DNA of 64,000 bases from an uncultured Clostridium sp. (GCA_902472585.1 CABROM010000001.1:221864-285863); one strand, 5' to 3'; positions 1,438-61,503 are shown, counted from the first letter of the stretch. Program-made: numbers and translations. The notes: generated from the letters alone by a model not told the origin.

Positions 1438-2116
1438 ATGAATAGAGCTTTTAGAATCGCCCCCCCCCGAAAAATTAAGATATAGCACAGGGGTTAAGGG
1501 GTTTACATTAGCAGAAGTATTGATTTCACTTGGTATTATTGGTATTGTTGCAGCTCTAACAATACCAGCACTTATTCAAAATACTAAAAAACAAGAAGCA
1601 AGTTCCAGAATAAAAAAATTCGTATCCGTAATAAATCAGGCACTTATATATGCAGAATTGGACTACGGATCTAGAGAAGATTGGAATATTGGCGAGACGG
1701 ATAGTTCAGATGCTGCATTCGATTTTTTAAATACATATATAAAACCTTACGTCAAAAGTTTTGACATTGAAAAACGACAATTATTAGGAAGGAATATGGC
1801 AACATTACGCTTTGTAGACGGTTCACAAATGAGTATTAAAATAGGCGCTTGTTATGATATTTATTATGACATAAATGGGGAAAAAGCTCCAAATGAGAAA
1901 GGTAGAGATATATACCCATTTATTCTATGCAGAAAAAGCGAAACTTGTAATGTGGCAAGTAATCAAGTTAGACCTTTTTACTGTATGCCAACAGGGACTC
2001 CATATCCAACGCATGAAGAATTGCTGAATGATTGCAAAAACGATGGGACATATTGCACTAAACTTCTTCAAGAAAACCAGTACGAATTTCCTAAAGATTA
2101 CCCCAAAAGGTTATAA
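1438..2116 (+). CDS. Type IV pilin-like protein (prepilin N-terminal cleavage/methylation domain). Reading frame interrupted at a poly-C tract, putative phase-variable gene currently OFF.
   Basis: ATG at 1438 with RBS aggagga 8 nt upstream encodes MNRAFRIAPPP..., then a stop at 1483. The +1 frame continues ...EKLRYSTGVKGFTLAEVLISLGIIGIVAALTIPALIQNT (class III signal peptide and hydrophobic alpha1 helix). There is no in-frame start between the stop at 1439 and the GFTLAEVL motif; the ORF-track TTG start at 1520 lies inside the mature pilin helix. Removing one C (8 C) or adding two (11 C) restores a single ORF. The Cys-rich C-terminus is typical of pilins. Confidence 0.75.
1460..1468 (+). repeat. 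Homopolymeric C9 tract (candidate slipped-strand phase-variation switch) inside the pilin leader-peptide coding region
   Basis: atcgc-ccccccccc-gaaaa read directly. G/C homopolymers of this length are highly non-random in this AT-rich sequence. Confidence 0.85.
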
Positions 2117-2120
2117 ACAA

Positions 2121-3875
2121 TTACATTCTACCGCTTAGAAAAGCTAAGTTTTCTGGTTTAATCATTGCCTGATATTGTTCATTCAATGTTGGAGAAGCTG
2201 CATTTGCTTTTGCATGTTGCTCAGATTTGTTTGCATTTGTTGCTGTTTCTGCTGCTGTTCCTTGATTTTGAGCTTTTGCAGCTGCAAGTTTTGCTTTACG
2301 TTTTTGTTCAGATTTATCTGTCATATAAATATTCAATCTAGGAATACCTGCACCTAATACAAGTCCTGAATACAAGTAACCTGCAACTTGAGCAATATTT
2401 AATGCTTTTAACTTTCCTTTTGTTTCTTTTCTTATTGCTTCATTAACTTGAGCTGAAGAAAGTTTTTGCATTAATTGTTTAAATGAAAGAGCTTTGCCAT
2501 TTTCAATAGGGTTAATACCAGCTGCTTTCAAGCCTCTATGCAAAACTTCATCTCTTGTAACCAAAGGAGCTTTTATAACCTTGTTGAAGAAGCCTTTACC
2601 ATGTTCTTTTTCACTGTAATTCAAAAGATTTTGATCAATAGCATTAGCAGCTATTTTAGCAACAAAGTTACCTAAAATAAGCCAGTTAAAGAAGCCTAAA
2701 ACATCTTTTACAACAGATTCTCTAAGTTCATCCTTATCACGTGCAACTATAAATCTTGACATGATTGTTACACCATAAATAAACTTAAATTGATCTAATG
2801 TAGGAACAAGACCTTTAAATTGAATTTTCTTTAAAATACCTTTAAATCCGCCACGCATACCTAATGATGCTAAAATACCACCACCAAATAATGCAGCAGC
2901 ACCGACTTTTAATGCTTTAAAGCCTGCTGAATAATCTTTTTCACGGCCTTCAACACCTACAAATCCGTCACTACCTGTCTTTTTCTTAGTCAAATAAATG
3001 TTCAAAGGTTGAATTGACATACCGACAGCAGATGCAATACCAATACCGAGAACTGAACGTCCAAGGTTCATATGTTTTAAATCTGCAATATATTTATTAA
3101 CTTTAAAATCTTTTGCAAATTCTTTTGCAATATTTTCATTTTTATTAACAAATGTACGAGAAACATTATAAACACTTTCAATAATGTTTTCCAAAGATGC
3201 AGTAGCAGCATCTTTACCAAGTCTGAATGTATTTTCAGAACCTGTTGCATTTGTAATTACTGAACGTGCGTATGCCTTCAAATCCTTAGAAATTGTTACA
3301 GGAGCTTCTTCTTTATTCAATACTTGAGAGAATTTTTCTACAACATCATCAACGTTATTTTCAGGGATTTTTATCCAATCATCACCGATACGAGTTTCTG
3401 CAGAACCAAATACATCTTTCAAATAAGCCTGTAATGGTTCTTTATTTCCGGCTTTAACTTGCTTATCCCAAGCTTTACCTAAAAGCTGAATAGTATCATC
3501 ATCAACAAATATTTTATGAGCCTTAACACCATATTTTTTATTTAATGCAGCAGCAATTGCAACACCAGCAAGAGTACCATAAACCCCAACTAAAGAATGG
3601 TTAATTGTACCGGAAGCTTCTCTTCTACCTGTTTCCATACCTGCAGCCGGGCCTCTTTTAACCATATCAATTGTAGTACGAGGGATTACCATAGATCCTA
3701 AATCCACAGCATTTGCACCCCAAGCCTGGTTTGTGTCTAAAAATCTTAAAAATACAGTTGCAGCATCAAAAGCACCTGTAAATTTTACATTATCATTGCT
3801 ATTTTGTTTGTAATTTTCTAAATTTTGTTTATGTTGTACTTGTTGTAATTGTGGGGCAATTTGTTGAATTTTCAT
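2121..3875 (-). CDS. Hypothetical 584-aa protein, paralog A of a tandem pair, with Gly-rich hydrophobic segments; family not recognised
   Basis: Long ORF with a good RBS (aaggagaaaataaatt before ATG). Clear similarity to the adjacent ORF 3890..5677, for example IPRT...GRREASGTI vs IPRT...FRRESSGLI, QFKGLVPTLDQF vs QFKGIFPTMDQA, DELRESVVKDV vs NELRESTVRDI. Confidence 0.7.
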   Translation of the reverse strand: MKIQQIAPQLQQVQHKQNLENYKQNSNDNVKFTGAFDAATVFLRFLDTNQAWGANAVDLGSMVIPRTTIDMVKRGPAAGMETGRREASGTINHSLVGVYGTLAGVAIAAALNKKYGVKAHKIFVDDDTIQLLGKAWDKQVKAGNKEPLQAYLKDVFGSAETRIGDDWIKIPENNVDDVVEKFSQVLNKEEAPVTISKDLKAYARSVITNATGSENTFRLGKDAATASLENIIESVYNVSRTFVNKNENIAKEFAKDFKVNKYIADLKHMNLGRSVLGIGIASAVGMSIQPLNIYLTKKKTGSDGFVGVEGREKDYSAGFKALKVGAAALFGGGILASLGMRGGFKGILKKIQFKGLVPTLDQFKFIYGVTIMSRFIVARDKDELRESVVKDVLGFFNWLILGNFVAKIAANAIDQNLLNYSEKEHGKGFFNKVIKAPLVTRDEVLHRGLKAAGINPIENGKALSFKQLMQKLSSAQVNEAIRKETKGKLKALNIAQVAGYLYSGLVLGAGIPRLNIYMTDKSEQKRKAKLAAAKAQNQGTAAETATNANKSEQHAKANAASPTLNEQYQAMIKPENLAFLSGRM

Positions 3876-3889
3876 AATTTATTTTCTCC

Positions 3890-5677
3890 TTACGAATTGA
3901 AAAATGACTTAAACGCTGTGTTATCCTTGACTAATGACCTTGTAAATTCATCATTTAGAACGGTTGATGAAGTTTCGGTCATTGCGGACGAGGAGGATGT
4001 TCGTCCGGATGAGGACGTTGTCGCGTTTAATGAAGCCGAATTATTTTGCTTTTCAGCTTCCAATTTCGCAAGTTCTGCAGCATGTCTTTTATTTATTGTC
4101 GTCCTAGTGTATAATGGGATGAACACTCCTAACGACAACAATGAGAATACAATATTACCGATTTGACAAATTGTTCTCATACGTTTGTCATTATGAGTTG
4201 CAAGTTCATCAGAAGATTTTAAAGATGTATGTTTGGCCCAATGCCAGAATTTTTTCATAAAGCTAGCATTTTTATCAGGTTCAGGTTTCAATCTGTTTAT
4301 CAAATGAATACCATCTTTTTTATGCTTATGTTCCAAAAATGTTGCAATACCTTTAGCAAGGTAATCTCCTAAGAAATAAAAACTTGAGAATGTAGCAATA
4401 TCACGAACTGTTGATTCTCGTAATTCATTTCTATCTTCAGAAGACCCCATACGGCTTGCAAATGTTGCGGTTGAAATTAATCTTGCCTGATCCATAGTAG
4501 GGAAAATACCTTTAAATTGCAAGATATTTTTCAATATAGGTTTGTCCATAAACATAGATAAACCGCATACTCCGAGCATTGAACCAATAGAAATAAATTT
4601 TTGAGCTAAAAGTTCTTTTTTTTCTTTTGGAGATAATTCTTTATGTTCTGTTTCTTTATTAAAATCTTTATAAATCGGAGCACCTTTTCTACCGGATGTC
4701 TTACGAGTAATCCATCTGTTAATAGGCTGCATAGAAATAGCAAGCGGAATAATTAATCCTAAACCGCCAATACTCTTCCAATTTACAAGTTTTTTAGCTC
4801 TATTAAAGTATTTAGAAAGTTCATTTGCATCTGTAATATTTTCTTTTATAACACCACGAATCATTTTAACTGTATCTTCACACATTGATTCAAGGTTGTT
4901 AGAGAAGAAGCCTTTATCACCTTTGAATTTAATATTTTCGGCAATTAATGTTTCTTCTACAATATTACGATAAGCCTTTTTAAACTGTTTTGAACTGTAT
5001 TTATCAGAAGTTACAAGATTTACAAATTCATTTACGGCATTATGAACTTTTTCATTACCGATTTTACCTACAAACTTGCCGTTTGCATCATGTTTTATCT
5101 TAAGAAGTTCATCGAAATGTTTTGTTTCATGTCCATCTACACCGGAAATACTACCAAGTTCATTTCTGAAAGTATTATAAATTTTTTCTTCTTTTGTTGC
5201 TCCTTCAGCTTCTGAATAGAATTTATGAATTTTATCTATTGCATCGCCATTTGCCCAAGTATTAATAAGATTAGACTTCTTGAAACTACCCATAATAGGA
5301 CGGTGTAAAAGAGATGCAACCCCCATAACAATAAAGCTTGGGATTAAGCAGTTAACAATTAAACCTGAAGACTCACGTCTAAAAGCTTCAAAACCAGCAT
5401 AACCGTTTGATTCTTTAGTTTCTACAATCGTACGAGGAATAATAGCTGTTGACAAATCCAATACAGAAACATTTACCATTGGTTGTTTTTCACACTGCTG
5501 AACCAATAAAATTGGCAAATCAGCTAAACCGCCTTTAAATGCCGGATTATTTTTCGCATTATTATCCCTATTTGGGGCACTATTATTATTTTTATTATTT
5601 ACACTTAATAAACTAACTTTTTCTATCATAATATAGTCTGGTTTAAAAACTTCACACCTATTATAACAATGACACAC
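3890..5677 (-). CDS. Hypothetical ~580-595-aa protein, paralog B of the tandem pair (start uncertain; likely ATG MIEKVSLL... near 5629)
   Basis: Paralogous to 2121..3875. A 14-bp gap to the downstream paralog suggests one operon. N-terminal Asn/Lys-rich low-complexity stretch. Confidence 0.65.
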   Translation of the reverse strand: MCHCYNRCEVFKPDYIMIEKVSLLSVNNKNNNSAPNRDNNAKNNPAFKGGLADLPILLVQQCEKQPMVNVSVLDLSTAIIPRTIVETKESNGYAGFEAFRRESSGLIVNCLIPSFIVMGVASLLHRPIMGSFKKSNLINTWANGDAIDKIHKFYSEAEGATKEEKIYNTFRNELGSISGVDGHETKHFDELLKIKHDANGKFVGKIGNEKVHNAVNEFVNLVTSDKYSSKQFKKAYRNIVEETLIAENIKFKGDKGFFSNNLESMCEDTVKMIRGVIKENITDANELSKYFNRAKKLVNWKSIGGLGLIIPLAISMQPINRWITRKTSGRKGAPIYKDFNKETEHKELSPKEKKELLAQKFISIGSMLGVCGLSMFMDKPILKNILQFKGIFPTMDQARLISTATFASRMGSSEDRNELRESTVRDIATFSSFYFLGDYLAKGIATFLEHKHKKDGIHLINRLKPEPDKNASFMKKFWHWAKHTSLKSSDELATHNDKRMRTICQIGNIVFSLLSLGVFIPLYTRTTINKRHAAELAKLEAEKQNNSASLNATTSSSGRTSSSSAMTETSSTVLNDEFTRSLVKDNTAFKSFFNS

Positions 5678-5926
5678 TAATATTAAAAGTCAGGCAAAAA
5701 AAAAATTGCCATAATAACTGCTAATGTTAAGGAGATATTAAGAGCACTTTTTGAATTTTTTATTAAAAATAGATGTATTTTAAACAAAATTTTTATTTTT
5801 TTTGAAAAAAACTCTAAAAAAAATAATCAAAATATGCAAAAATTAAAAAAAAATTCACACAAATTTTTTGTAAATAATTGTAACAATTACGATTAATATT
5901 GAAAAATAGTATAGACAAAATATATA

Positions 5927-10018: not shown

Positions 10019-10049
10019 AAAGACCGCTTGAATGCGGTCTTTTTCTATG
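10019..10049. terminator. Bidirectional rho-independent terminator between convergent typA and the pilin gene
   Basis: aaaagaccgcttgaatgcggtctttttct: a 7-bp GC-containing stem flanked by A-run and T-run. Confidence 0.75.
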
Positions 10050-10789
10050 GCAAACTTTTCCAAAATGTAGGATCAGATAGAGCTTTATAAGTACACCCTG
10101 CGCCATTCATGCTATTATTAGAGGTCTTTGAGCAATACGCATCATTTGCATTATAATAAGTTGTACCTTCTGCACCCATTGGAATTAATTTTCCCTTATC
10201 ATCCAACTGAAACATAAATAAATCTTGACCTAACCGGTTTGGTCTTTTATTATAACCATTCACATCAATTGATATATATATATTCCCTGTAGTCCCATCA
10301 AAATTATTATTATTTTCAATTAAAATCAAACTTCCATCAGCTAAAACAAATTGTCCGTCATCAAACCACATCAATTCAATTGAATTTGTACCAGTAAAAT
10401 TTTTATATGTAGTCGAATTCTTATTGGGATCATTGTAATTTTTTATACAAGCAGAATCAGAATCTCCTGATCCAAAACCACAATCTTGTATAACTTTAAA
10501 ATATGGTATTATTTCAGATTTAAAACTTTGAGTACCCATGTTTGCAACAATTGGTTCACCATTTTCAGCCTGATACATATTTAGAGCTTGCGCTATCTCT
10601 GAAGCGCCTTTTTTCAATCCCGCTTCCAGCTCTTTTTTCTGCGTATTTTGTATCAATGCAGGTAAAGTCAATGCCGCAACAACCCCAATTATGCCTAATG
10701 TTATCAATACTTCAGCAAGGGTAAAACCTTTATAATTAGCGGTTAAACGCCCCCCCCCCGACGTTCCAATAAATCATGTTTTTTCATAA
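10045..10789 (-). CDS. Type IV pilin-like protein (prepilin N-terminal cleavage/methylation domain). Frame interrupted at a poly-G tract (C10 on + strand), putative phase-variable gene currently OFF.
   Basis: Minus-strand ATG at 10789 (RBS aggagctgaattt) encodes MKKHDLLERRGGG..., then TAA. The other frame continues RLTANYKGFTLAEVLITLGIIGVVAALTLPALIQNTQKK.... 11 G or 8 G would give one continuous ORF. There is no in-frame start before the GFTLAEVL motif in the current state. Confidence 0.75.
10750..10759 (-). repeat. Homopolymeric G10 tract on the coding (minus) strand (C10 on + strand); candidate phase-variation switch
   Basis: aaacgc-cccccccccc-gacg read directly on the + strand. Confidence 0.85.
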
Positions 10790-10840
10790 ATTCAGCTCCT
10801 TTGTTTAATATTCTTCTTTCTAAACTTTTATTCTATTATA

Positions 10841-18039: not shown

Positions 18040-19116
18040 ATGAGTATCATAGCAGATGACAACGATTTTCAACAAAAAAGCATATCCGAAAAGAAAAAAA
18101 ATTCGGTAATTAAATGTGAATGCCTTGAAAATGATAAAAATTTTGAAAATTGTATCCGTCCAAAAACTTTTGACTCGTACATAGGTCAATCTGCTCTTAA
18201 AGAAACCTTAAAAATTTCAATTGCCGCAGCAAAAAAACGAGGACTTCCTCTTGATCACTTACTTTTTTACGGTCCACCGGGATTAGGGAAAACGACACTT
18301 GCAGGTGTAATTGCCGAGCAAATGGGAGTTGATATCAAAATTACATCAGCCCCTGCTCTTGAAAGACCTCGAGATATTATAGGAATTTTAATGTCTTTAA
18401 AGGGTGGCGAAATATTATTCATAGATGAAATTCATAGACTGAATAAAGTTGCGGAAGAAATTTTATACCCTGCTATGGAAGACTTTTTCTTAGATATGAC
18501 AACAGGGAAAAGTCAAACGGTAAAAACTCTTCGCGTACCGCTTCCAAAATTTACACTAATCGGTGCAACAACAAAAGCAGGAGAATTGTCAGGGCCGTTA
18601 CGTGACCGTTTTGGAATTATCCACAGACTTGAATTTTACACAGAAGATGAATTAGCTCAAGTTATAAAAAGAACAGCAGGAATTTTAAATATAGAAATTA
18701 CGGAAGAAGGAGCACAGGCTATTGCAAAAAGATCCCGCGGAACTCCTCGTATAGCAAACAGACTTGTCAAAAGGGTTGCAGATTATGCACTCGTAAAACA
18801 TGACGGAAAAATAACAGAAGATATAGCAAACAAATCACTTGATATCTTAAAAATAGATAATTTTGGGCTTGATAATACAGATAGAAGCCTATTAAGATTA
18901 ATTATCGAAAAATATGACGGTGGGCCTGTCGGAATAGAAACAATTGCAGCAGCGATAGGAGAAGATGTCAGAACAATTGAAGATGTTTGCGAACCTTTCT
19001 TATTACAAGCAGGCTTGTTGCAACGAACACCTCGAGGAAGAAAAGTTTCTCCTGAAACTTACAGACACTTGGGTTACAAAAATTATAAAAACAATGAACA
19101 ACAAAGTTTATTTTAA
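18040..19116 (+). CDS. ruvB: Holliday junction branch-migration ATPase RuvB (with ~40-aa N-terminal extension)
   Basis: [11 protein letters not shown]...[19 protein letters not shown] Walker A plus RuvB-specific motifs. Confidence 0.9.
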
Positions 19117-19196
19117 AAATAATAATTAAATATTATTATTTCTAATGTTATCTATATTTTTTTATGGTAAATTTATGCTTGGTTAGGAGATATTTT

Positions 19197-20342
19197 ATGA
19201 AAAAATTTATCATAATTTTATTTTTATTAATGGGATTTTTTACACAATGCTATGGCGCAGATGACAATAAAACAGTTTTGCCATCTGAAACAGGTATTGT
19301 TGAAAATATTAAATATGAAGATGCAGACGGGCTAAACCAAGGAGAAGAAACGACAAAACAAGTTGTTACCGTAAAGGTTTTAACAGGAGATTTTAAAGGA
19401 ACAGAAAGAATTATTGATAACATGCTAACAGGCAACCCTGCATACGATATAAACCTTTCCAAAGGAGAAAGAGTTGTTTTGCATGTTGAACCGGTTTCTG
19501 ACACGGTTTCAACCGCAGATGATGTAGATTTCTTTATCGCAGATATTAAACGTGATAAACAAATATATATCTTTACAGGCATATTCTTTGCACTGCTTTT
19601 GCTTATAGGCAAGAAAAAAGGTTTAACAAGTATTATTTCAATCATATCTACAATTACACTTGTATTTTTCATGCTTTTACCAATGATATTAAAAGGTTTT
19701 TCACCAATTGCATCAGCAGTTTTAACAGGCATCTTGTCGACAATCATAACGATTTATCTTGTTGGCGGATTAAATTCAAAAAGTTCTTCCGCAATAATTG
19801 GTGCTGCAATAAGCCTTGTTTTTGCAGGCGGACTTTCTATGCTTGCAATATATTTTGCACATCTTACAGGCTTTGCAGGTGAAGAAAACATGTTTTTATA
19901 CACAGCAAGACCAGATTTAAGTTTCACAGGAATTCTTGCAGCCTCAATGATTATAAGCGCATTAGGAGCACTAATGGATACATCGGTATCAATTGCAAGT
20001 ACTGTCAACGAAATTTTTGAAACAGATAAAACACTTTCAATAAAGCAATTATTCAAATCAGGAATGAATGTAGGGCGTGATATTATAGGTACAATGTCAA
20101 ACACACTTATTCTGGTTTATCTTGGCGGAGCATTATCACTTGTTCTTTTATCAAACAATATTGATATGAACAAATTTTTCAACCTTAACCAAGTAGCAAC
20201 AGAAATTCTATCCGCAATCACAGGAAGTATCGCAATTTTATTTTGCGTTCCAATTACGGCAATTATTGCAGCCTACTTAATTAAACGCAGCAGCAATAAA
20301 CAAAAAACTGATTTTAACTTAAATCAAATTGATATACATTAA
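19197..20342 (+). CDS. YibE/F-like integral membrane protein with N-terminal signal/anchor and periplasmic domain
   Basis: MKKFIIILFLLMGF signal, an ~120-aa soluble domain, then ~8 TM helices. RBS taggaga before ATG 19197. Confidence 0.45.
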   Translation: MKKFIIILFLLMGFFTQCYGADDNKTVLPSETGIVENIKYEDADGLNQGEETTKQVVTVKVLTGDFKGTERIIDNMLTGNPAYDINLSKGERVVLHVEPVSDTVSTADDVDFFIADIKRDKQIYIFTGIFFALLLLIGKKKGLTSIISIISTITLVFFMLLPMILKGFSPIASAVLTGILSTIITIYLVGGLNSKSSSAIIGAAISLVFAGGLSMLAIYFAHLTGFAGEENMFLYTARPDLSFTGILAASMIISALGALMDTSVSIASTVNEIFETDKTLSIKQLFKSGMNVGRDIIGTMSNTLILVYLGGALSLVLLSNNIDMNKFFNLNQVATEILSAITGSIAILFCVPITAIIAAYLIKRSSNKQKTDFNLNQIDIH

Positions 20343-20392
20343 TATTTATAATTACTTAATCATACAAAACAAAATTAATATTTTTATAAAAA

Positions 20393-20421
20393 AAGGAGAG
20401 TTAAAAAACTCTCCTTTTTCC
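20393..20421. terminator. Bidirectional terminator between the YibE/F-like gene and convergent metK
   Basis: aaaaaggagagttaaaaaactctccttttt. Confidence 0.75.
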
Positions 20422-20437
20422 AGTTTTTATTATATAC

Positions 20438-21712
20438 CTACTTTGAAGAAGAACAACAATCACAAGCAGCAGACTTTAAAATATCTGCTTTATCTGTTCT
20501 TTCCCAAGGTACATCAATATCAGTTCTGCCCATATGACCGTAAGCAGCTAATAATTGATAGAACTTACCGCCATTTTTAGCAGGCAAACCGCGCAAGTCA
20601 AACTGATTAATAATAGCAGCAGGTCTTAAATCAAAGTATTTGAATACTAATTTAGAAATTTCATCATCAGAAATTTTACCAGTACCGAATGTATCAACCA
20701 TAATTGAAACAGGTTCTGCAACACCTATTGCATAAGCCAATTCAATTTCACATTTATCAGCTAAACCTGCAGCAACAATGTTTTTAGCAACCCATCTTGC
20801 AGCATAAGCAGCAGATCTGTCAACTTTTGTAGGATCCTTACCAGAAAATGCTCCGCCGCCATGACGAGAATAACCACCGTAAGTATCAACAATAATCTTA
20901 CGACCTGTCAAACCGGCATCCCCTTGAGGGCCACCAACAACAAAACGTCCTGATGGGTTTACAAGAATTTTTGTTTCACTATCTAATTTAATAGCTTCGT
21001 GAGCAAAAACTTCATCAATTACATAAGCAGTAATATCTCTTTTTATAATTTCTTGAACTTTATGATTATCAGACACACCGTCAATTTCAGGATCATGCTG
21101 AGTAGAAATCAAAACAGTATGAATTCTTGAAGGTTTTCCATCAACATATTCAACAGTAACCTGAGATTTTCCATCCGGTCTTAAATATTTAAGAATACCT
21201 TGTTTTCTAACCTGAGCTAATCTATGTGATAATTTATGAGCTAAGCTGATTGGCAAAGGCATCAATTCAGGAGTTTCGTTACAAGCGTAACCAAACATAA
21301 TTCCCTGATCACCTGCACCGATATCATCTGTTTCAGAAGATGAAGTATCAGCATTATCAGATCTTGTTTCAAATGCTTTGTTAACTCCGCCAGCGATATC
21401 ACAAGATTGTTCATCAATACTTGTCAAAACTGCGCAAGTATCAGCATCAAAACCACCACCTGAAGCACCTGAATAACCGATATTTTTAATAGTGCTTCTT
21501 ACAACTGATGGGATATCAACATAACAATCAGATGTAATTTCACCGCAAACAAGAGCCATACCTGTTGTAACAGTAGTTTCTGCTGCAACTCTTGATTGAG
21601 GGTATTTTGTCAAAAACTCGTCCAAAATAGCATCAGAAATCTGATCGCATACTTTGTCGGGGTGTCCTTCCGTAACTGATTCGGAAGTGAATAAAAAGTT
21701 TCTTGGTGTCAT
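20438..21712 (-). CDS. metK: S-adenosylmethionine synthetase (with short Cys-rich C-terminal extension)
   Basis: [31 protein letters not shown]. 424 aa, ending ...[11 protein letters not shown]. Confidence 0.93.
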
Positions 21713-59947: not shown

Positions 59948-60814
59948 ATGAAAATATTATTTTGTACAGATGGCTCAAAAATAAGCTTTAATGCACTAAA
60001 AAACATCTCTCGTTGGGTTAGAAAAGCCCAAATCGATACAATATGTGTAATAGATTGGTCATTTTTACCTGATGAAATAAATATTGAGGATGAAAATTTT
60101 TCCTATACTTGTGCAAATATGGCAGACACAGTTCTTAATCACGCAAAAGAAGAAATTAATAAATTACAAATGCAAAACGGAGAACAAATAAAAAATTGCG
60201 GTTCTGCGATAGAGGGAATAATTGAACAAGCAGATAAAAAGGATTATGACTTAATTCTTATGGGCTCTCACGGCAAAAAAGGAATGCAAAAATGGTTAGG
60301 TTCGGTATCACAAGCAATTATTAACAATAGCGAAATATCAAATTATATATCTAAAGAAGAAAATAAATGTGAAAAAATTTTACTAACGACAGACGGTTCT
60401 CTTTGCTCTTTAGAAATAATGAATAAAATAATTCCGAATATAAATTTTGAGGATAAAGAAATTCATATTTGTATGGTAAATGAAGACCCGAATTTTTTAT
60501 TTCTTGACGGCACTTTAGATACAAATTGGCTTCTTGATATTCAAAAGCAGCAACAAATATATGCAGCAAAAGCAATTGACAAAATCAAAGACATAATTAA
60601 AACAAACTGCAATAAAGATGTTAATGAAACCGCAATATTATCAGGTATTCCCGCACAAAAAATAATAGATTATGCAAGAACAAGAGAAATTGATTTAATT
60701 GTTATGGGTTACAAAAGTAAGACAAAATTAGACAGATTTCTAACAGGTTCTGTCAGTAAACGAGTTCTTGAAAATGTTGTAAGTGATATATGGCTTGCAA
60801 GATGCAAGAATTAA
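59948..60814 (+). CDS. Tandem universal stress protein (UspA) domain protein
   Basis: Two Usp modules: KILFCTDGS...LILMGSHGKKGMQKWLGSVSQAIIN and KILLTTDGS...LIVMGYKSKTKLDRFLTGSVSKRVLE. Confidence 0.8.
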   Translation: MKILFCTDGSKISFNALKNISRWVRKAQIDTICVIDWSFLPDEINIEDENFSYTCANMADTVLNHAKEEINKLQMQNGEQIKNCGSAIEGIIEQADKKDYDLILMGSHGKKGMQKWLGSVSQAIINNSEISNYISKEENKCEKILLTTDGSLCSLEIMNKIIPNINFEDKEIHICMVNEDPNFLFLDGTLDTNWLLDIQKQQQIYAAKAIDKIKDIIKTNCNKDVNETAILSGIPAQKIIDYARTREIDLIVMGYKSKTKLDRFLTGSVSKRVLENVVSDIWLARCKN

Positions 60815-61503
60815 TATGTCATTTCCCAATTATTATTTAATATTAATCCAAAGCAACCCTTTGCATCTGATCTTGCAGTACAACCAAGTGCAGCCCTTAC
60901 ATCTTTTGCATTAGTTTTTCCAGATCCGCAAGATGTACCGGAAGTTCTGCATTCTGGAGGGATTCCATCTTCATCAATAGAACCGTCTTTATAATAAGAT
61001 ACAAAATATAAATCACGACCAGCGACATTTGGACCGGCTTTTCCGTTTACATCAATTGTTATATGTCCATAAGTACCGTGATATTTTGCATTTTCCAAAC
61101 ATAAAGAAGCTCCGTTTGCTATTACAAAACAAGGTGCATTGGCACTACCAAACCAATAATTACTATTATTCAAATTAGAACCATTTATATTTTTATATTG
61201 CCCATCATAAAAACAATCAGTAAAATTAGTACAAGATTTAACTATTTTAAAATAATTTTGCATAAAATTCGTAATCTCAGCAGAAGATGTAAGTCCTGCT
61301 TCATGCAGATTCAACGCATTTTTATCAGTCATATATTGCATAAAAGCCTGAGATAGCAAAGTATACACTTGATGAAGTTGGGTTGTATAAGCTTTTCTCT
61401 GGTGATTTTGCATTAATGTAGGCACTGTCATTGCTGCGACAACACCAATAATTGCTAATGTAATTAAAACTTCAGCTAATGTAAAAGCACTAAATTTTTT
61501 CAT
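60811..61503 (-). CDS. Type IV pilin-like protein (prepilin N-terminal cleavage/methylation domain), intact
   Basis: MKKFSAFTLAEVLITLAIIGVVAAMTVPTLMQN. Cys pairs in the C-terminal half. No homopolymer tract. Confidence 0.85.
   Translation of the reverse strand: MKKFSAFTLAEVLITLAIIGVVAAMTVPTLMQNHQRKAYTTQLHQVYTLLSQAFMQYMTDKNALNLHEAGLTSSAEITNFMQNYFKIVKSCTNFTDCFYDGQYKNINGSNLNNSNYWFGSANAPCFVIANGASLCLENAKYHGTYGHITIDVNGKAGPNVAGRDLYFVSYYKDGSIDEDGIPPECRTSGTSCGSGKTNAKDVRAALGCTARSDAKGCFGLILNNNWEMTY

Follow-up and report, generated by a model that had tools for sequence, protein, structure and literature searches.

The DNA analysed here is a stretch of 64,000 nucleotides (the window) deposited under the name of an uncultured Clostridium sp. 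(GCA_902472585.1, CABROM010000001.1:221864-285863). Close to its 5' end, on the + strand, lies a gene for a type IV pilin-like protein (locus 1, 1438-2116) whose leader-coding region contains an unbroken run of nine C, a candidate switch element for translation of the protein. A Shine-Dalgarno sequence, AGGAGGA (1424-1430), of which AGGAGG is kept in orthologues, lies 7 nt 5' of an ATG (1438-1440) that opens the first part of the leader, MNRAFRI and the G of an Ala codon, in frame 0 (1438-1459); the same N-terminus is common to the natural in-frame alleles P0129, P0137 and P0176. The poly-C tract occupies 1460-1468, and at nine C the ATG frame ends at a TAG (1483-1485) after a 15-aa product, MNRAFRIAPPRKIKI. 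An earlier reading of the window, made from its sequence alone (the sequence-only reading), had described this arrangement, and the ribosome binding site (RBS), the nine C and the stop at 1483 that it gave all stand; the residues that it gave for the truncated product need correction, since the 9-C frame reads A-P-P-R and not APPP.

The second part of the leader, EKLRYSTGVKG, with Gly at -1, lies in the +1 frame without a start codon (1469-1501) and is followed by the mature protein (1502-2116, stop codon included), which starts FTLAEVLISLGIIGIVAALTIP, a class III signal-peptide core with Glu at +5. The pilin frame reads ...EKLRYSTGVKG and then, beyond the processing site, FTLAEVLISLGIIG..., with the F codon at 1502; it is +1 relative to the ATG and is closed upstream by a TGA (1439-1441). 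Ahead of the processing motif this frame holds no ATG, GTG or TTG, as the sequence-only reading had stated, although its claim that no start at all was possible there has to be relaxed for a sole table-11 start, the very rare ATA at 1442. We rejected this ATA as a very unlikely start for the pilin frame, as it is a rare start codon, overlaps the ATG and is never picked by gene callers. The TTG at 1520, where the gene callers begin a 198-aa product, was also rejected as the true start, as it removes the processing motif together with Glu+5 and has no RBS. Removing one C from the tract, or adding two, joins both halves into a single 225- or 226-aa open reading frame (ORF). The RBS-proximal ATG shares a frame with the processing site at tract lengths of 3n+2 and at no others; 8 and 11 C are in frame (ON), 9 and 10 C out of frame (OFF).

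Upstream of the gene and 3' of atpG (379-1311) there is an AT-rich hairpin with a U-run on the + strand (1341-1378), the fold of 1330-1385 giving a 16-bp core stem of -17.7 kcal/mol with a z-score of -6.8 against shuffled sequences. It is likely to be the atpG terminator, and the pilin-like gene would therefore be its own transcription unit. Between the hairpin and the RBS lies a sigma-70-like promoter, TTGACA-17 nt-AATAAT (1383-1411, +), with 11 of 12 consensus matches, and the same layout occurs upstream of the orthologues in contigs L003, L015, L016, L021, L032 and L035. With a promoter of its own and a convergent ORF on its 3' side, the locus-1 gene would be the only one affected by a switch here.

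Identity of the protein and of its host

The locus-1 protein matches the prepilin N-terminal models PF07963 (23.4 bits against a cut-off of 21.2) and TIGR02532 (23.1 against 16.3), and its globular part, which carries conserved cysteines, matches DUF6613 (PF20318); the sequence-only reading had called it pilin-like, and these matches agree. Around the processing site, KG followed by FTLAEVLISLGIIGIVAALTIP, it shows the residues of a cleavage/methylation motif, namely Gly at -1, Phe at +1 and Glu at +5, and then a hydrophobic helix. An AlphaFold2 model built on a 14-sequence alignment, of low confidence (mean pLDDT 60.6), has a 53-residue N-terminal helix (residues 24-76) and then five strands. 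A Foldseek search of the PDB with this low-confidence model gave no match at E <= 0.001, and we treated its top matches, EspG and CyaY (E ~0.3), as meaningless. Genes for pilus machinery (prepilin peptidase, PilB/PilC type) are absent from the 64-kb window; a Gastranaerophilales genome is reported to encode pilA, pilB, pilC, pilT and pilD (PMC5877343).

Homologues came solely from Gastranaerophilales (Melainabacteria) genomes and from human or animal gut metagenomes, their sources including the misnamed 'Clostridium sp. CAG:715/768' and 'Fusobacterium sp. CAG:439' as well as 'Ca. Stercorousia' and the complete genome MEL.A1. The host is an uncultured human-gut bacterium of the Gastranaerophilales, in the Melainabacteria, a non-photosynthetic relative of the cyanobacteria.

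A second locus of the same design

Locus 2 (10045-10787, - strand), 9 kb away, has the same design as locus 1 and is likewise out of frame, a parallel that the sequence-only reading had not drawn. An RBS, AGGAG (10800-10796), and an ATG (10787-10785) open a second pilin-like gene, whose tract (10750-10759) is G10 on the coding strand and C10 on the + strand; 11 or 8 G would be ON from this RBS and ATG. At 10 G the ATG frame reads MKKHDLLERRGGGV and ends at a TAA (10745-10743), and the other frame, out of register with the ATG, reads ...GGGRLTANYKG and then FTLAEVLITLGIIG...; it spans 10045-10749, that is, the remainder of the leader, RLTANYKG (10749-10726), and the mature protein (10725-10045), again with PF07963 and TIGR02532. 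The family of locus-2 homologues is very large, with 7569 matches among the 8000 candidates scored. An internal comparison is offered by a third pilin-like gene (60811-61503, -), MKKFSA followed by FTLAEVL..., which also has the prepilin N-terminal motif (PF07963, TIGR02532) and is intact, with a short leader and no tract.

The distribution of G/C runs in the 64-kb window is bimodal: six measure 5 nt, the other two 9 and 10 nt, and no run has a length of 6-8; at a GC content of 31.9%, a model of independent, identically distributed bases expects 0.007 C runs of at least 9, so that the improbability which the sequence-only reading ascribed to such runs is borne out. The sole two G/C runs longer than 5 both fall within leaders of pilin-like genes, in stretches between start codon and processing site of 62 nt (locus 1) and 61 nt (locus 2). 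Rfam and tRNA scans of the window returned above gathering thresholds only five tRNAs, none of them near 1400-1530 or 10700-10800. Nearly all of the window has a negative GC skew, and both tracts are poly-C on the + strand despite the opposite strands of their genes; there may be a bias in tract orientation relative to replication, which at n=2 is not interpretable.

Several observations concern the starts and surroundings of locus 2. A second ATG (10768-10779, -; MIYWNV...) lies upstream of the G tract in another frame, without a recognisable RBS. In a related strain (L048/L049, 330-500) this ATG is in register at 9 G; gene callers use it there (P0181), and the sequence just after the tract also differs from that of the window. 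Contig L050 has a further ATG directly adjoining the tract (MSGGGH...). Starts in several frames may give graded expression, a third, weak expression state at locus 2 being conjecture. In contig L006 (SRR31704207) a gene for an MmeI-type N6-methyltransferase/restriction protein follows bipA (18852-20597), where other strains have the locus-2 pilin-like gene and an EamA gene, a strain-specific replacement beside the switch locus.

Tract length differs among strains of the same species

Tract lengths were compared on assemblies rather than reads, in contigs fetched by exact protein look-ups, one of which was anchored on the neighbouring AtpG and was hence blind to the state of the pilin gene. 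In 15 samples of the window's species, with identical flanks throughout, independent contigs carry 9 C (six samples, OFF), 10 C (eight samples, OFF) or 11 C (one sample, ON), a spread of lengths that supports phase variation as the sequence-only reading had proposed it. In the contig with 11 C, L003, the prepilin is encoded in frame as predicted, MNRAFRIAPPPEKLRYSTGIKGFTLAEVL... (P0129, 226 aa), and this natural allele confirms for 11 C the earlier claim that 8 or 11 C would restore one continuous ORF. One set of five contigs, L010-L014, has an identical 645-nt stretch from tract to stop, with 9 C in one contig and 10 C in the other four. At locus 2, L010 has G10 and L011 has G11, the two contigs being only 12 substitutions apart over 15.6 kb, and the 11-G allele of L011 is called as a 248-aa N_methyl protein. 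When JGI metagenomes were scanned with a degenerate pattern of the flanks, the source contig, ULMR01033525.1, was the sole match, and no samples were gained.

The lengths are reproduced where different pipelines can be compared. Contigs L004 (MEGAHIT k141) and L008 (Logan) are 100% identical over 10.7 kb, both tracts included, and L052 (ENA) and L053 (Logan) agree in tract length on matching sequence. In the Logan assembly of ERR11564176 the left contig, L061, stops right after C10 and the right contig, L008, starts 19 nt before the tract. A de Bruijn graph with k=31 breaks in this manner when reads support more than one tract length, and the break is a hint of mixed tract lengths within that sample.

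The tract is conserved in other species

In a sister species (77% protein identity) the contigs listed (24 read) have 8 C in 10 cases, 9 C in five and 10 C in three, again with identical flanks in all its contigs, and the 8-C allele is in frame, reading MFDIKAFRVAPPARIAKFKGFKG and then FTLAEVL. In-frame alleles are found at the predicted lengths: P0129 (APPPE, 11 C), P0149 and P0151 (APPA, 8 C) and P0176 (11 C). The comparison of orthologous loci that the sequence-only reading had suggested as a check shows the tract to be kept in other species. Among GTDB species representatives that retain the N-terminal motif, seven have an uninterrupted tract (C10 in four, C9 in one, G10 in MEL.A1 and G11 in one), one has an interrupted tract and seven have a short leader and no tract. 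All seven tract-bearing representatives are out of frame with their RBS-ATG. The species with the interrupted tract, CCCCTTCCCC (L015/P0137), reads MNRAFRVAPSPEK... in frame and would be a locked-ON derivative.

Conservation at the nucleotide level extends over a 5' module of promoter, AGGAGG, ATG, 6-9 codons ending ...AGCTT(T)TAGArTtG, the C tract and then GmAAA. The association of long runs with these leaders also holds more widely. In 125 kb from 20 other species, seven of eight G/C runs of at least 8 lie within 350 nt upstream of a pilin motif, on the coding strand. Among family representatives, 85 of 120 and 28 of 120 have GGG or PPP in the called leader, against 8 such occurrences in 46,932 residues of the mature parts. 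In the CAG:715 lineage the N-termini of ~80 cluster representatives imply tracts of G8-G12 with a mode of G10, and ~9% are in frame with the RBS-ATG.

Some other Gastranaerophilales have a very long stretch (50-220 codons) between the tract or ATG and FTLAEVL that is nevertheless open in frame: L023, 2690-3040 (MEL.A1); L031, 2260-3050; L032, 2850-3040; and L017, upstream of 3007, with proteins P0208, P0209, P0246 and P0274. Such leaders occur with and without a 150-nt insert (P0020 versus P0021). A near-palindrome, GGTGCTACGCACGTAGCCC (translated 'GATHVA'), is frequent in them, sometimes after a second pseudo N-terminus, 'AFTLAEGATHVA...', and could be a mobile or recombination element of pilin 5' regions. 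It has no match in the window at up to 3 mismatches and so plays no part in the switch proposed there.

Selection on the gene and, apparently, on its tract

The frame from tract to stop is open in all 15 contigs compared, so that tract length is the sole lesion of the gene. Between species, dN/dS over the mature part is 0.06-0.20, and against most of them synonymous divergence is at or close to saturation (dS from ~0.4 to >2). The tract itself appears, on this comparative evidence, to be maintained by selection, because a neutral 10-nt run would not stay uninterrupted at near-saturated dS.

Neighbouring features of the window

Convergent to the locus-1 gene are two adjacent large ORFs on the - strand, 2121-3875 (584 aa) and 3890-5677 (595 aa), neither with a Pfam or NCBIfam match. 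The length of the former differs between strains (550, 580, 584, 588 and 592 aa), and it may hold an indel-prone or repeat region. Some 20 nt 5' of the GTG (5677) with which the 595-aa ORF starts, within its putative promoter or 5' untranslated region, there is an A10 run (5696-5705; T10 on the minus strand); elsewhere in this AT-rich window A/T runs of 8-10 are frequent and intergenic.

Discussion

The comparative sequence evidence makes it probable that locus 1 is a slipped-strand contingency locus, in which changes of tract length toggle translation of a prepilin, and that it is OFF in this assembly, at 9 C. According to this interpretation, slipped-strand mispairing at replication would alter the tract by one C in either direction. 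At 8 or 11 C the RBS-proximal ATG would be in frame with the site between G and FTLAEVL, giving the full prepilin; at 9 or 10 C translation would end after 13-15 codons, and, as no start codon lies between the tract and the processing site, this state would yield no processable pilin. Since the tract contributes nothing but Pro (or Gly) residues to a leader that is cleaved off, the mature protein would be unchanged by switching, and the two ON lengths, 8 and 11, would differ by one Pro in a peptide that is removed by prepilin peptidase. Natural alleles are for the most part OFF, one step from ON (mode 10, ON at 11), a setting expected to yield a small ON subpopulation and a form of bet-hedging. 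Many paralogues, and orthologues within the order, share this design, and the genes together would amount to an array of surface or pilus subunits, each switched independently of the others. The assemblies display the features by which simple sequence repeat (SSR) contingency loci are recognised: an improbable 5' tract, toggling of the frame, length polymorphism between invariant flanks, and an otherwise intact gene with a maintained tract. From these we infer that the tract changes by replication slippage, reversibly and frequently within a clone, and controls the level of the protein.

Three other explanations have to be weighed against phase variation. The correction of the frame might occur during expression, by slippage of RNA polymerase on the C/G run or by a ribosomal +1 or -1 frameshift on CCC-C, and the tract would then be a constitutive attenuator rather than a heritable switch. 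Reading of CCC-C by tRNA-Pro is inherently liable to +1 shifts, and transcription can slip on homopolymer runs; leaky recoding would also help to reconcile the purifying selection on the protein with the out-of-frame state of most natural alleles. A programmed site, however, should keep one length and one frame relation, and a fixed slippery sequence with a single frame relation is found neither within nor across species. One species would require +1 (9 C), -1 (10 C) and no shift at all (11 C), the sister species has 8, 9 and 10 C, so that the variation is demonstrably in the DNA, and the site has no stimulatory structure or known RNA family. Recoding in place of DNA switching is on these grounds very improbable, and it could act alongside DNA switching as a source of low-level leakiness. 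Alternatively, the locus might be a fixed or decaying pseudogene, frameshifted within a run prone to mutation and in the process of being lost from this species. This would suit a species in which 14 of 15 samples are out of frame and nearly all of the polymorphism is non-synonymous; it sits poorly with a frame that has no lesion other than the tract in any of the 15 contigs, with a promoter, RBS, ATG and flanks that are all conserved, and with the same design at locus 2.

It might also be the case that the true tract is in frame, at 8 or 11 C, and that the OFF state is a homopolymer-length error of sequencing or assembly, as the sequence-only reading had itself allowed. Homopolymers are error-prone, one contig pair breaks at the tract, and most calls are one base below the 11-C ON length. 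Against this, the calls agree between pipelines (L004 with L008 at both tracts, and L052 with L053) and the lengths follow haplotypes rather than scattering at random. The occurrence of both 9 and 10 C would need errors of different size and sign, and the recovery of 8-C and 11-C assemblies demonstrates that the pipelines can report in-frame lengths. Error would in addition leave unexplained why the tract exists, why it is conserved and why it is restricted to the leaders of pilin-like genes. A fixed pseudogene and a pure assembly error are both unlikely because of the length polymorphism, the in-frame 11-C allele of the same species, the uninterrupted tracts conserved across species at saturated dS and the dN/dS of 0.06-0.20; we would put the pseudogene as very improbable and the length error as the least probable of the three. 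None of these alternatives jointly accounts for the length polymorphism in the DNA, the in-frame alleles, the conservation of the tract and its restriction to leaders.

Several observations nevertheless weigh against phase variation. Within the species 11 of the 12 segregating nucleotides are non-synonymous and three codons have multi-nucleotide changes (pN/pS 2.7, on 12 sites, too few to interpret), an excess that fits diversifying or relaxed selection in numbers too small to decide between them. A single graph break is what hints at heterogeneity within a population, and read errors associated with homopolymers could cause the same break. Tract length follows haplotype to some extent: the four contigs of the window's atpG haplotype that extend to the tract, which come from up to four assemblies, all read 9 C; if these are independent, not every host sees a flip of the majority state. 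ON alleles are rare, at one of 15 samples at locus 1, none of the seven tract-bearing species representatives and ~9% of representatives of the CAG:715 lineage, a rarity that would fit a mostly-OFF bet-hedging switch and would equally fit slow loss of function in some lineages. Lastly, the locus-1 gene is by its sequence type IV pilin-like (prepilin-type), its predicted pilin function and surface location deriving solely from the match of the N-terminal domain.

As a phase-variable gene, locus 1 would find its nearest counterpart in pilC1/pilC2 of Neisseria gonorrhoeae and N. meningitidis, in which Jonsson, Nyberg and Normark are said to have described, in 1991 (EMBO J 10:477, among the references of PMC5910500), a poly-G tract in the region coding for the signal peptide. 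In both cases the G/C run falls in a targeting sequence that is cleaved from the N-terminus of a type IV pilus protein, and changes of one nucleotide would toggle translation and leave the mature protein unchanged. PilC, however, is a large tip/assembly protein with a Sec-type signal peptide, whereas the leader here is that of a class III prepilin, and there is no homology between the two. The host, moreover, is a member of the Melainabacteria rather than a proteobacterial pathogen, and the device recurs on many pilin-like paralogues. The poly-G/C contingency loci of Campylobacter jejuni, reportedly set out by Parkhill in 2000 and Bayliss in 2012, resemble those described here in their setting, a genome of ~30% GC in which G/C runs of at least 8 are otherwise absent and are concentrated in surface-structure genes, and in their lengths of 8-11 with a mode near 9-10 and many loci OFF in the consensus. 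They differ in their targets, which are enzymes of glycan, capsule and flagellar modification with tracts in the body of the ORF, in contrast to pilin-like proteins with leader-confined tracts. Switching in C. jejuni has been shown experimentally, whereas the case made here is comparative.

Other systems are more distant. In Haemophilus influenzae lic1A a (CAAT)n repeat is combined with start codons in two frames, and outer-membrane protein genes of Helicobacter pylori have CT repeats in the signal-peptide region. These repeats, too, are at the 5' end of the ORF, and the second start frame at locus 2 distantly recalls the strong, weak and off states of lic1A, but their units are of four or two nucleotides and not of one. 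Neither they nor the Neisseria and Campylobacter loci are homologous to those of the window. The poly-C tracts of Bordetella pertussis fim2/fim3 are promoter elements; they share with locus 1 a poly-C run controlling a fimbrial subunit gene, and differ in that control there is transcriptional, through promoter spacing, whereas here the run lies after the ATG and would act through the reading frame. The protein itself resembles type IV pilins and pseudopilins in its positively charged leader ending in Gly, with F at +1, E at +5 and ~20 hydrophobic residues. It differs in its globular part, which is DUF6613, with no match at equivalog level to PilA, GspG or ComG, and its leader of 21-22 aa is longer than those of type IVa pilins because it carries the switch module.

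A search of one literature library for phase variation and homopolymers in Melainabacteria, Gastranaerophilales and Vampirovibrionia found no publication on SSR phase variation in this lineage. The mechanism is classical; neither the lineage nor the family of targets appears to have been described. The interest of the finding lies in that lineage of uncultured gut Melainabacteria, in a device that recurs throughout a very large pilin-like family, and in a pitfall of annotation. Public gene calls (1520-2116 in the window, and the database proteins P0001, P0003, P0150 and P0179) are systematically wrong at the 5' end, giving 198-aa or 184-aa products that start inside the transmembrane helix, or artificial N-termini such as 'MPPP...' (from a TTG adjoining the tract) and 'MSGGG...'. 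Annotation of metagenome-assembled genomes therefore under-reports intact prepilins, and protein databases hide the switch. Tract lengths in public metagenomes could in turn give a culture-free readout of phase state across hosts.

To our knowledge the Gastranaerophilales are widespread in the human gut and uncultured, and almost nothing is known of their surface biology. More tentatively, as an extension that we consider possible rather than probable, the gut Gastranaerophilales may possess a lineage-wide 'pilin phasome', in which many scattered single-gene DUF6613 paralogues would each be gated by a G/C tract in their own leader, itself part of the conserved 5' module, with an ON length one step above the mutational mode (10 to 11, or 8) and ON in few cells. 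Some of the loci would have three states through a second start codon in another frame. This uncultured sister lineage of the Cyanobacteria would then own a combinatorial stock of pilus or surface subunits, silent for the most part, with phages or host immunity as a plausible driving force. If these are contingency loci, the bacteria would share with mucosal pathogens a strategy of stochastic ON/OFF switching, here directed at a very large pilin-like family. The pay-off would be that a surface structure varies under pressure from phages or the host, and the loci would point to strong fluctuating selection on pili, for example as phage receptors, as targets of host antibodies or in attachment.

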